The position numbers and the translations under genes are program-made. A DNA stretch of 64,000 nt, from contig OY970194.1 in assembly GCA_963708075.1 (NCBI GenBank), positions 1 through 64,000 on the forward strand, in the 5' to 3' direction. The notes beneath the pieces were generated by a model. The model saw only the letters and a list, made by a program, of their open reading frames with translations. It was not told the DNA's origin and did no database searches. This DNA is from Sedimentisphaerales bacterium. Its GTDB lineage: Bacteria; Planctomycetota; Phycisphaerae; Sedimentisphaerales; Anaerobacaceae. Of this stretch, positions 20,255 to 56,937 are shown piece by piece. The stretch's first letter is position 1; each line of letters begins with the position of its first letter.

Positions 20255-20941
20255 TCAGACCATTCGACGCCGACGTATCCAGCCAACCAGGCTTATGCCA
20301 ATGCCCCCGAGCAGGATTGCACCGGGAGCAGGAACAGATGGAGCTGGCTCATCGATGTAGAAATTGTCCATCCCGAAACAATCCACAAGATTCGACGCTG
20401 TAAACGAAAACCAGGCGATATTGTCGAAGTTGGCGCCCAGGAATATCTGTGGATTAGCACCGGCAAACCCCCAATCGTCCGTGGGTAGTAGCTGGGAGAA
20501 ACCATTTGAAGCGTTGATCCAGACCTGCTCATTGCCGGAGGCCGGCCCTCCACCAAAATCCGTGTTGGAGGTGAGTATGAAGTAGTTCAGATCGAACGGT
20601 GTGCCATCTATCTTGGTGACTAAGATACTCGTCAAAGCGCCATAACTGCCCGTTGCCCAATGTGCGTGTATGACAGCATTGCCGACGTGATAGTAGTCTC
20701 CGATGATCCCGTGGTCACCGACGAAATCCAGTCGAAATCCGTTTTCGTCGTAATAGTCCACCCCCAGTGTGCCTGGATCTCCCCAGCCGGGCGGCCCATA
20801 AACTGCACTGTTGTCAGTAACGACGGTCGTGCCATCGCTCAGTGTTGCCGTACCTCCAGTGAAGTCGACGATGGCTGCCTGTGCGGTCCCCGCAAGGCAC
20901 AGCATGCCACATAGAACGATTGTCAAATATCTCGTCTTCAT
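20255..20941 (-). CDS. PEP-CTERM-type (VPAPG) exosortase substrate
   Basis: AQA signal peptide; C-terminus VPAPGAILLGGIGISLVGWIRRRR. Confidence 0.85.
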   Translation of the reverse strand: MKTRYLTIVLCGMLCLAGTAQAAIVDFTGGTATLSDGTTVVTDNSAVYGPPGWGDPGTLGVDYYDENGFRLDFVGDHGIIGDYYHVGNAVIHAHWATGSYGALTSILVTKIDGTPFDLNYFILTSNTDFGGGPASGNEQVWINASNGFSQLLPTDDWGFAGANPQIFLGANFDNIAWFSFTASNLVDCFGMDNFYIDEPAPSVPAPGAILLGGIGISLVGWIRRRRMV

Positions 20942-21167
20942 CTCTCTACTCCTTCTTTGAACCCTCAAACCATTAACTTCTCACTCTACACCCGGTAACC
21001 CAGTGACCTGATCTGCTCAGTACAAACGAAAGGTGCGAAACCCAGGTATTCAGCAGCTTGAGAAGGATGGCTGCCTTCCTTGGGTCGGTTCAATTGTCGA
21101 GGATGAATGGACCGCACGTCGAGCACGGCCCGCTCCTGTGTTCTCGGCTCGAGTCCCTTCGAGTTCG

Positions 21168-21971
21168 TCAGACGGCTCTGCGTCTGCGGAGCCAGCCGAT
21201 CAGGCCAACGCCGATTCCACCAAGCAGCAGGGCCCCCGGCGCGGGAACGGGATGGGCCGCATAATAGAACTCATTCTCTCTGAAGATATGCCTCGATCCT
21301 GCTTCTGCTCCGAGATTCCATTCCAGGGTCATCATGGTTGTTCTCACCTGGCCAAGGCCCCAATCATACTCCATATAGCAGGGCCTTACATCGCCACCTC
21401 CGATGTCAACCCCGATTACCATCTCAGTTCCGGGTACCAGATCGGTGAAGTATCCATGGGTGGACCAGTTCCAGTTCTGCAAGCTGGTCTCCGTAACCAC
21501 CCCATAGGGCCCATCGATTACCGGATGAGTAGGGTCGAGTAACTGGACTGCATTGGAGTACGTTGGCCCCACATATCCAACACCACCAGGCAGAAGCTGG
21601 CCATCCTGCCAGACGCCATCCCCGTCCCAACCATGGACGGTCGCGTGGGCGACAAGAATCCCTCCATTCTGGACGTACGTGTCCAGCGCCCCCAGACCGG
21701 CGGCTACGTTGTTGTAGAAAGACTGGGGCTGAACAGAAGCCAGGACGACGAATTGGTACTGGCTCAGGTCTGTGCTCCCCAGGTTGGCTGAGGGAATCCA
21801 GTCGTAGGCAATGCCTAGATCGGTCAGTGTCTGACTGTTGCTGATTCCGGAGCCATCCCACGGCCGCACATCCTCAAGTAATAGAGCTTTCGTTTGCGCA
21901 TGAGCGGCGCCTGGAATCAGCGGCACCATCATGAACAGCATTACTGTCAACAAGACTCTTTGGTCTCTCAT
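21168..21971 (-). CDS. PEP-CTERM-type (VPAPG) protein with a GATase-like fold region
   Basis: AHA signal peptide; C-terminus VPAPGALLLGGIGVGLIGWLRRRR; YVQNGGILV motif. Confidence 0.85.
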   Translation of the reverse strand: MRDQRVLLTVMLFMMVPLIPGAAHAQTKALLLEDVRPWDGSGISNSQTLTDLGIAYDWIPSANLGSTDLSQYQFVVLASVQPQSFYNNVAAGLGALDTYVQNGGILVAHATVHGWDGDGVWQDGQLLPGGVGYVGPTYSNAVQLLDPTHPVIDGPYGVVTETSLQNWNWSTHGYFTDLVPGTEMVIGVDIGGGDVRPCYMEYDWGLGQVRTTMMTLEWNLGAEAGSRHIFRENEFYYAAHPVPAPGALLLGGIGVGLIGWLRRRRAV

Positions 21972-22529
21972 TCTGCGTCTTTCCTTTCTTCGGAATCAGC
22001 GTATTGTTGTCTTCGCTGATTCAATAGTGATCGTGACGGTTTATGCGATTACACTCCTCTTTGTGATCCACCCGACATTGCCCGCGCGTGGCCGCCAACG
22101 GAACGTGCCGGGTGGCCCAGAACGCGGCGGTTGCCCCTGTCGGGACGACAGTTCAATGGGCACGAATATTCTGCTTGTGATTCCTCCGGATAGTCCCCAA
22201 CCACCTGTCCGAAGGCGCATACCATCCACGGGGTGCTTGACTTTTATGCACGGATTTGCGAAGATCGGTGTTCGGCGGTCATGGACTGGGATCCAGGCGC
22301 CCTGTTGCATCTGCAATGGGGCGCCCCGGCCGCCTCAACCAGATATCATCCATCCGGATTCTATCGCTTCCTTCGCCGTCTTTTCATCTATCACCCATCC
22401 CGTCAGTTGATGGCATGTTCCATGTGTGCTGCGGGAAACGATCGGCGGTGGTCGGGCGCGGTTGCGCCGGTTCCGTTGTGGATGAGTATGGAGGGGTATT
22501 GAGTGCGCAGAGAGTGTGCCGTAGTCCGC

Positions 22530-22785
22530 GTAATGAGCTGTCCATGCCGCCCCTCCGTGACTTCCTGCCTTCACCATCTCTCCTGACCTGCCTCTCTCCG
22601 TTACCCTCTATCGCTCTGCGGGCGAGCCTCGCCCGCCGCGAACCATAAAGGCGCTCTACGCCACTCTCCTGGTAGCATTCATCCGTGAGGCTCTGAGAAG
22701 TATCATCTTTGCTCGCCCTCGGCAACGCTTCCAAGCCAAAGGCGCCAAAGACATCCGTGGAGTGCATCCCTTCCGTGAAATGACG
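22530..22785 (-). ncRNA. Candidate CsrA/RsmA-binding RNA (CsrB/RsmZ-like sRNA or leader)
   Basis: About 10 ANGGA/AGGA motifs in about 240 nt immediately downstream of a strong promoter, several in hairpin loops. The 3' end is not defined. Confidence 0.45.
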
Positions 22786-22790
22786 CGGTA

Positions 22791-22820
22791 ATTCTACGAG
22801 GGCTCTCCCGCCATTGTCAA
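22791..22820 (-). promoter_or_regulatory. Sigma70 promoter
   Basis: TTGACA-N18-TAGAAT on the minus strand with an AT-rich upstream tract. Confidence 0.7.
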
Positions 22821-23008
22821 GTAAAAAAGCGAAATAATCTATTTCTGTCGGCGACAATCGGGAGGGACCCCAGACTCGATGCGCTCGCATGAGTCGTGGC
22901 TCGCGCAAGCGACAATGCCGCCGCTACAGCCACGGCGGGAGAGTCGTGCCCGCGGTAATTCGCGGGACGGAACTGGATTAGAGGCATCGCATACCCGGAG
23001 TGGCGCCT

Positions 23009-24073
23009 CTATTGCGAGGAGAATGCCTGACGGACCACGGCTCGCGGGGCGCGGAAGATCGTGCCGTGGTGTGCCTCGGGCGGCATCTTCACTTCGCTGG
23101 TCCTGTCCGTCCAGTGGACGAGGTCTTTCGATGTCGCCAGGCCGAACCGGTTTGTTGGCAGACGGAATCGGTCGAAATAGAGCCACCACTCGGCGCCGAC
23201 GCGCAGCAGCGTCGGTCCTTCCACCCACTGGTTCGACTGTACGTCCGAGTCTGGGCCCGCCACCGGGGCGGACCACGGCTTGTTCGGATCGGTGAGCGAG
23301 CGGAACTTAGGCGGGAAGGGATTCGTCAGATCGGCCGGTGCGGCGGTCAGCCGGATGTTCTTGCCGCCGAGTTCCTGCATCTGCTCATCCTTGGCCGCCA
23401 TGACCCAGCGTCCGTCCGCTGGGTCCGCGGTGCCCGCGTCGAACGCCATGCACGCATCGATCTCGCTGAAGCCCGGCGAGAAGAACACCGTCGCGTCTGT
23501 GAAATCCTTGAAGTCCGTCGTCCGGGAGATGAAGGTGCGGTGGTGGCGCAGGTCCGGCTTGACCTTGCGGCTCGGGTCCTTCTCCAGCCCACCGGAGTTG
23601 TGGCCCCCATCGCCTTCAACGCCGGCGGTCGCGGAGGACCAGAGGATCGCATAATTCTTCTGCACCGGGTCCCAGTGGACCTCCGGGGCCCAGGTGTTGT
23701 GCGGCTGGTCGTCAGCGGGCCAACTGCGGAACGGCCGTACGCACACCGGCTCCGACCACCGCTTCAGATCGGGCGAGGTCGCGGCCCCGAAGCATGTCCC
23801 GACCCAACTGGAGGTCCAAACCATGTGGAACAGGCCGTCGTAAAAGACGATCGACGGGTCCCGCGTGAGGTTCTGCCCCTCCCACGCCGGCGGCATGAAC
23901 ACAGCTCGGCCCTCGTTGAGGTCCCTGAATGTCAAGCCGTCCTCGCTGCAGGCCAGGAACACGCCCGTTTCCCCGTTGCCCTTGAAGTAGCTCAGCAGAA
24001 AGACATCCTCTGCCGCCTCGACACCACAGGAACAGATCAAAACGACAATGCAACTCCAGATATAGCTCTTCAT
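23009..24073 (-). CDS. Secreted glycoside hydrolase family 43-like protein
   Basis: Signal peptide; RDPSI, FHMVWT, WAPE, IDA, EGPT, HGT. Confidence 0.85.
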   Translation of the reverse strand: MKSYIWSCIVVLICSCGVEAAEDVFLLSYFKGNGETGVFLACSEDGLTFRDLNEGRAVFMPPAWEGQNLTRDPSIVFYDGLFHMVWTSSWVGTCFGAATSPDLKRWSEPVCVRPFRSWPADDQPHNTWAPEVHWDPVQKNYAILWSSATAGVEGDGGHNSGGLEKDPSRKVKPDLRHHRTFISRTTDFKDFTDATVFFSPGFSEIDACMAFDAGTADPADGRWVMAAKDEQMQELGGKNIRLTAAPADLTNPFPPKFRSLTDPNKPWSAPVAGPDSDVQSNQWVEGPTLLRVGAEWWLYFDRFRLPTNRFGLATSKDLVHWTDRTSEVKMPPEAHHGTIFRAPRAVVRQAFSSQ

Positions 24074-56723: not shown

Positions 56724-56937
56724 TCTTTCGTCCCTCACGGGACTGGCTTCTATCCTTGGCCCAGGTTCCCCAGCGATAAATCGCTGGGCTATTCTCTATC
56801 GCCCCGCGGGCTTGGACGGCGCCCCAGTCCTCTTGCGTCGGCCCATCCGCCCCACAGGGGCGATCGACAATAGCCCACCGTTTCAACGGTGGGTACCGGT
56901 AGCCCATCACATCCCAAAGCCCCGCAGGGGCGAAAGA
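56724..56937. repeat. Inverted pair of multi-hairpin units (REP/MITE-like)
   Basis: TCTTTCGTCCC..GGGACT and CCCAGCGATAAATCGCTGGGCTATT are mirrored by AATAGCCCACCGTTTCAACGGTGGG and AGCCCCGCAGGGGCGAAAGA. Confidence 0.75.

Follow-up and report, generated by a model that had tools for sequence, protein, structure and literature searches.

A promoter-proximal A(N)GGA cluster in a Sedimentisphaerales bacterium as a candidate CsrA-binding RNA, with two conserved elements of similar design

Locus layout, motif cluster and predicted folding

The analyzed window (64,000 nucleotides, positions 1 to 64,000 of contig OY970194.1) of a Sedimentisphaerales bacterium contains a gap of about 1 kb (21972-23008) without any called gene. 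The gap is flanked by three minus-strand genes: (i) an upstream gene for a GH43-like glycosidase (23009..24073; PF04616 below cut-off), (ii) a first downstream gene for a PEP-CTERM-type exported protein (21168..21971; weak match to NF038129 below cut-off, Atlas neighbours PF07589 with a score of 0.97), and (iii) a second downstream gene of PEP-CTERM type (20255..20968) with an uncertain start. Elsewhere in the window, a facing pair of Acido-Lenti-1 Rfam matches above the gathering score is located at 56769-56812 (plus strand) and 56848-56893 (minus strand).

The minus-strand promoter TTGACA-N18-TAGAAT reported in the initial annotation was located within the gap (22791..22820). This predicted sigma70-type promoter agrees with the consensus in 11 of 12 positions and is one of 121 sites in the genome with at least 11 matches. 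Its putative start site near 22785 lies about 815 nt from the next gene start at 21971, in agreement with the distance of about 820 nt estimated before. Just 5' of the -35 box, a perfect 6-3-6 inverted repeat (22831..22845) might represent a regulator site, albeit a weakly indicated one; it is the sole perfect copy in the genome, with eight one-mismatch copies. A weaker promoter-like site (22358..22387, minus strand; 9 of 12 matches, within chance level) could separately serve the PEP-CTERM genes, and a weak promoter-like sequence on the plus strand (TTGACT-17-GAAGAT, 22237-22265) points antisense toward the element.

The CsrA/RsmA protein binds ANGGA motifs in loops and is titrated by RNAs carrying them in Gammaproteobacteria; GGA is also the core of ribosome-binding sites, which counts against a reading in terms of CsrA. 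The candidate RNA core (22530..22785, minus strand) contains ten A(N)GGA motifs, all of which were recovered where previously listed, the earlier coordinates denoting the lower end of each motif. Their 5' starts are 22776, 22758, 22686, 22601 and 22558 (ACGGA), 22771 (AGGGA), 22670, 22584 and 22566 (AGGA) and 22545 (ATGGA), amounting to seven ANGGA and three AGGA on the minus strand within 22541-22776, with five of the ten in the form CANGGA. Dinucleotide shuffles of the element seldom reach these values (p = 0.004 for ten sites, 0.002 for seven ANGGA, 0.043 for four loop sites). Genome-wide, at least ten sites are present in 0.20 % of non-coding 260-nt windows, corresponding to 57 loci in the 7.5-Mb genome or about 0.5 per 64 kb; since 57 intergenic loci reach this number, the motif count by itself is unremarkable. 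No second copy of the element was found in the own genome, and the four other loci with at least five ACGGA all look repeat-derived (judged by eye). Intergenic tandem simple repeats rich in CACGGA (e.g., at 1187874 on the plus and at 6223617 and 5210733 on the minus strand of the own genome, G000:C1, to which all coordinates outside the window refer) yield many ACGGA and inflate background counts; if transcribed, these repeats could also bind CsrA.

Among promoter-anchored segments, the element ranks first by site count behind the 434 promoters with at least 10 of 12 consensus matches (10 versus 8 in the next). In a second set of 331 TTGAC promoters, each with non-coding DNA behind, its ten sites are tied with one repeat-derived locus and expected about once; by unpaired sites it is the first of 331 (nine versus five in the runner-up, fitted expectation 0.08), and by CANGGA count it leads with five, followed by two loci termed c1 and c2 with four each. 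The threshold of 0.6 unpaired, the 60-nt span and the 255-nt length behind these ranks were all set after the element was seen. Upon re-scoring of 49 of the 331 segments, the element was still first in unpaired sites at spans of 40 and 100 with 255 nt, and dropped to 4th or below the top six with 200 nt counted. The motif density, recommended earlier for a check against background, is therefore above local shuffles and top among promoter-anchored segments, but not rare genome-wide; what makes the element stand out is the placement of the motifs right behind the promoter together with the accessibility of the sites.

Local folding predicts nine of the ten sites to be at least 0.6 unpaired, which 0 of 250 shuffles reach, compared with 49 % predicted-open sites in shuffles (binomial p = 0.009). 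In case of the four GGA-loop hairpins proposed initially, the first two are stable alone, but the two 3-bp ones are marginal (+0.6 kcal/mol, and -0.5 kcal/mol via a different stem). The stable ones are a 5' hairpin with the six-base loop ACGGAA (22762..22784, minus strand; -2.6 kcal/mol, z -1.8) and a 7-bp hairpin with the loop CAGGAGA directly after a CACGGAUG site (22658..22678, minus strand; -6.0 kcal/mol, z -2.2). Two long minus-strand stems, the bounds of which were picked after folding, complete the predicted structure. The first (22705..22752; -25.2 kcal/mol, z -3.7), also present in the centroid structure, exposes in its apical loop a GGA absent from the earlier list, and the second (22600..22656; -31.5 kcal/mol, z -4.1) is GGA-free and capped by the previously noted GC hairpin, which is indeed present at 22618-22636. 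The purine-rich 3' cluster with five A(N)GGA sites (22541..22601, minus strand) is weakly folded in local folding. The folding energy of the whole region is ordinary (z -0.63 and -0.47), arguing against a sponge RNA.

A protein-coding explanation of the segment was rejected on hexamer scores, Pfam and homology: all overlapping ORFs are negative in a hexamer model trained on the own genome (5816 genes from a crude gene caller), the two longest ORFs of the gap have no Pfam match, and no homolog was found for three short ORFs. A 53-codon ORF behind GGAGG (22384..22545, minus strand), the start codon of which lies within the last AUGGA, is probably not a gene, considering its non-coding score (-0.40 per codon versus +0.13 for the lowest 1 % of called genes) and the lack of a homolog. 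As described before, no U-tract follows the cluster, one weak 5-bp terminator-like site being located within it at 22662. A C-rich, G-poor tract (22448..22525, minus strand; 36 C and 12 G in 78 nt) is a candidate Rho loading site, its C-richness being modest (top 3.6 % of 3792 non-coding windows). The own genome harbours rho, and the tract may act as a Rho terminator, which would explain the missing U-tract.

Relatives, look-alikes and the CsrA background

The earlier proposal to look for conserved GGA loops in relatives yielded a negative outcome, with no homolog of the element found in about 100 relatives and by pattern scans. BLAST retrieved none with a 711-nt query in 40 relatives, with a 331-nt query in 60 family genomes, or, accepting E values up to 1, in the 23 other genomes of the genus (29 weak-match loci inspected in each of the latter two). 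A single-sequence covariance model reached at best E 0.998 in 45 relatives and stayed above E 5 in five genomes, and promoter-plus-motif patterns in 24 and 5 genomes returned just ordinary leaders with at most 8 sites. Pattern scans gave 0 matches in metagenomes, and 0 matches as well as 3 unrelated ones in genome collections, in searched collections that may omit records very close to the window's genome. Rfam provided no match at E up to 1 for the window locus, c1 or c2; at the gathering score, the distant Acido-Lenti-1 pair gave the only matches in the whole window.

The flanking genes failed as synteny anchors, with differing neighbours and no full-length PEP-CTERM ortholog in the genus. 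None of 14 loci with GH43-like orthologs or fragments has the element downstream, other DNA following in all of them, and the first PEP-CTERM protein yielded tail matches only in the genus, together with two 30 % matches in metagenomes. Since the neighbour genes are not conserved in place, the locus may be lineage-specific as a whole. Low-depth contigs from two of the four DNA runs examined (14 runs in all) contain three substitutions in the core, i.e., one changing AGGA to ANGGA, one adding a GGA and one beside a motif. No motif is destroyed, a weak indication given that these variants may be errors, since all contigs over the element have a depth below 5; a 225-nt contig over 22548-22772 may be chance coverage.

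From genome-wide lists, five other GGA-rich candidates were picked and two of them tested (c1 and c2); both turned out to be conserved. Element c1 (plus strand, about 3193470-3193680, promoter at 3193470) combines a promoter with a GGA-hairpin and has 6-8 sites. It is present in 6 of 24 genomes, i.e., the own genome and clear homologs in 5 of 23 relatives, two more weak matches in relatives having been dismissed as coding noise. The same dehydrogenase-like gene precedes all six copies. In the own genome, as well as in at least two relatives, a convergent gene comes next; therefore, c1 cannot be a leader there. Element c1 is the best candidate for a free-standing sponge and indicates that free-standing RNAs of promoter-plus-GGA-hairpin design exist. 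At varying distances behind c1 (250-530 nt downstream), a CU-rich motif of roughly 20 nt and additional blocks show conservation; they possibly stem from a second RNA, or from the 3' portion of a longer one.

Element c2 (minus strand, about 947037-946800, promoter at 947037) is a predicted GGA-hairpin RNA with covarying stems. At E below 1e-15 it was detected in 16 of the 24 genus genomes, of which ten constitute the training set. In the alignment of 14 of the 16 copies (omitting a copy truncated at a contig end and a partial one), two sites keep A-N-GGA throughout, with N varying between A, C and U. In a five-helix model, 88 % of the cells are paired, two-sided changes number 21 and the covariation score is 0.216 (0 of 500 shuffles as high), but the changed-pair count is not significant (45 of 500 shuffles) and helix 5 is poor; the structure was hand-drawn from the same sequences, which biases these values in its favour. 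Between 380 and 830 nt downstream of c2, another GGA hairpin is preceded by a conserved block of about 30 nt. In 10 of 14 loci this block can be read as the end of a Cys-rich peptide, but some copies have stops upstream of it, which favours a non-coding motif.

Common to the window element, c1 and c2 are a TTGAC promoter, a first GGA hairpin located about 10-20 nt from the RNA start, CANGGA sites, stems free of GGA and the lack of a U-tract, and the order site, hairpin, long stem, site in c2 resembles window positions 22690-22590. In contrast to c1 and c2 (conserved in 6 and 16 of 24 genomes), the window element has no detected homolog. It did not match the c1 and c2 models, and the reverse test reached at best 7.7-7.9 bits (E 0.8-0.9); thus, the window element shares the design, not detectable ancestry. 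Paralogy is not supported by the models, which fail to cross-match; a MAFFT co-alignment looks suggestive but is not evidence. The stronger evidence lies outside the window, with c1 and c2. Segments directly behind TTGAC promoters that precede PEP-CTERM clusters share a first hairpin with a GGAGG loop (1674834 on the minus strand, 2881874 and 6418430 on the plus strand, and four further loci); such segments might form a class of CsrA-controlled leaders.

The initial annotation had asked for csrA and fliW. A single copy of csrA exceeding the NCBIfam cut-offs is present in the host genome, and csrA was found in 23 of the 24 genus genomes (second, divergent copies in 3 of 23 relatives). The nearest named homolog is from a Sedimentisphaerales bacterium (88 % identity), on which grounds the host is regarded as a planctomycete of the Phycisphaerae; the host CsrA aligns gap-free to that of E. 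coli and retains the important residues H43 and R44. In 16 of 23 csrA leaders (by eye), a second A(N)GGA is found 20-35 nt ahead of the ribosome-binding site, which suggests CsrA autoregulation; the conserved csrA leader forms a predicted stem around this second A(N)GGA, ending at the ribosome-binding site. The fliW gene was found neither in the own genome nor in any other of the 24 genus genomes (completeness 74-99 %). With csrA in 23 of 24 genomes and fliW in none, the CsrA of this genus is left without known antagonist. The own genome contains a flagellin gene even though fliW was not found, csrA is not located beside flagellin genes, and the flagellin leader has one A(N)GGA site only, at the ribosome-binding site, which argues against a sponge.

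Possible functions of the element

The window element is predicted to be a CsrA-binding RNA, with a probability of about 0.65. This reading is supported by the motifs, the promoter match, the non-coding character of the segment, the presence of csrA, the failure to find fliW and the two look-alikes. The element had initially been interpreted as CsrA sponge or multi-site leader; the csrA/fliW background and the conserved RNAs of the same design speak for this notion, but the lack of a homolog of the element itself does not, so that it is supported in part. Of the outcomes named at the outset as refuting it, a missing csrA, a motif density at background level and an ORF accounting for the segment were checked, and none overturns it outright.

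Within this reading, a sponge RNA ended by Rho is tentatively preferred over a leader of the PEP-CTERM genes. We infer that transcription from the promoter would yield a structured non-coding RNA of about 260-340 nt, in which the two long stems would serve as scaffold displaying about nine single-stranded A(N)GGA. Several CsrA dimers would bind, each contacting two sites, and in place of a U-tract terminator, Rho loaded onto the C-rich tract that follows the last motif would terminate most transcripts. Such an RNA would titrate CsrA off ribosome-binding sites in mRNAs, like CsrB and RsmZ, and thereby replace the missing FliW. The element would then represent a third RNA, young or fast-evolving, of the design that the two conserved elements of the genus already exhibit.

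It is unlikely, by comparison, that the element is the 5' portion of an 815-nt multi-site leader with which CsrA would regulate the two PEP-CTERM genes in cis, either through gated Rho termination at the C-rich tract, on the model of the E. coli pgaA leader, or through a block of the 53-codon ORF. The element is located on the strand of the PEP-CTERM genes and has no intrinsic terminator, and PEP-CTERM upstream regions are mildly richer in sense-strand sites (2.56 versus 2.00 per 260 nt, p = 0.004; 35 versus 2955 regions). Of 14 inspected weak matches to the c2 model, five combine a promoter with a GGA hairpin 220-1160 nt upstream of PEP-CTERM-type genes, and c2 itself precedes a conserved exported-protein gene of unknown family by about 470-1070 nt, with more GGA hairpins between. 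A CsrA-gated Rho mechanism is already known from pgaA (PMC4052769). A pgaA-type sequestering hairpin is, however, unsupported: the duplex of GGA cluster and C-rich tract is weaker than most shuffles (87-92 % pair at least as well), and the accessibility of the tract increases only from 0.44-0.58 to 0.60-0.63 when the motifs are forced open. Further points against a leader are the non-coding score of the 53-codon ORF, which also lacks a homolog, the weaker promoter nearer to the PEP-CTERM gene, and the position of ten sites 570-800 nt from the start codon, which would seem to exceed the needs of translational control.

Comparably improbable is a chance cluster, i.e., a PEP-CTERM promoter followed by a purine-rich, fast-evolving spacer in which the GGA motifs have no function. 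The 57 intergenic loci with at least ten sites, the expectation of about one such count in 331 segments, the lack of conservation in any search, the ordinary overall folding energy, and the window length and thresholds set around the finding would agree with it. Chance accounts less well for the unpaired state of nine out of ten sites (49 % in shuffles, binomial p = 0.009), for two stems at z -3.7 and -4.1, and for the conservation of both other candidates tested under the same criteria (of five picked); moreover, the flanking genes likewise fail to keep their place, so that relatives may have lost the whole locus.

A structured RNA with GGA loops that bind another protein or act by base pairing is very unlikely, since A-N-GGA with free N in c2 fits the CsrA SELEX consensus (PMC7652899) and 16 of 23 csrA leaders (by eye) have a further A(N)GGA ahead of the ribosome-binding site, even though about half of the tested CsrA homologs failed on a standard GGA target (PMC13443453) and several c1/c2 loops read GGAGG, resembling ribosome-binding sites. 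Taken jointly, chance or another explanation of the element is doubtful.

On a broader scale, it is plausible, although less likely than not, that the Sedimentisphaerales evolved their own CsrA-titrating RNAs independently of the Gammaproteobacteria, with at least three unrelated GGA-display RNAs per genome (the window element, c1 and c2) which would be ended by Rho, be tied to the loci of PEP-CTERM and other exported proteins, and possibly combine sponge and leader in one transcript.

Comparison with known Csr systems

CsrB/CsrC of enterobacteria and RsmX/RsmY/RsmZ of Pseudomonas resemble the element in having their own promoter, no ORF and many A(N)GGA in single strands or loops (predicted in the present case), and their hosts likewise possess csrA but not fliW. 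Differences are the missing Rfam match and U-tract terminator, the two long scaffold stems, the other phylum, and the number of sites (about 10 versus 22 GGA in CsrB; PMC7652899); furthermore, conserved motifs and stems as in CsrB/RsmZ were not detected for the window copy. A GacA/UvrY-type box has 0 matches in the genome, a different palindrome being located at 22831-22845. The element would thus work like CsrB/RsmZ, yet it would not be a member of this family by family match and terminator.

In the E. coli pgaA leader, too, a C-rich tract comes after several CsrA motifs, upstream of genes for a cell-surface product, but this leader is considerably shorter (about 234 nt versus a putative 815 nt here; PMC4052769). 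Rho, which terminates the pgaA leader, is encoded in the present host too, whereas a sequestering hairpin has no support beyond base composition.

With the CsrA-FliW-flagellin circuit of B. subtilis and Campylobacter, the host shares a CsrA with a long C-terminal tail and a flagellin gene, but fliW was not found in 24 of 24 genus genomes and csrA lies apart from the flagellin genes. It was proposed that Planctomycetes may use FliW (PMC4682653), to which the failure to find fliW in any of the 24 genomes of the present genus runs counter. CsrA-antagonist RNAs are described as a feature of Gammaproteobacteria, with FliW as the alternative (PMC7652899). A report of Csr RNAs in Planctomycetota was not found in the full-text literature searched, which includes a minority of the subscription journals.

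The window element is a real motif cluster in a fitting genetic background, with a candidate function for this copy; the transferable finding consists of the missing fliW and of c1 and c2 as a conserved pair. If the proposed reading is true, CsrA sponges made of RNA arose in a second phylum, and a link exists between CsrA and PEP-CTERM surface proteins, with the window element, c1 and c2 providing concrete antagonist candidates for a CsrA without known antagonist.
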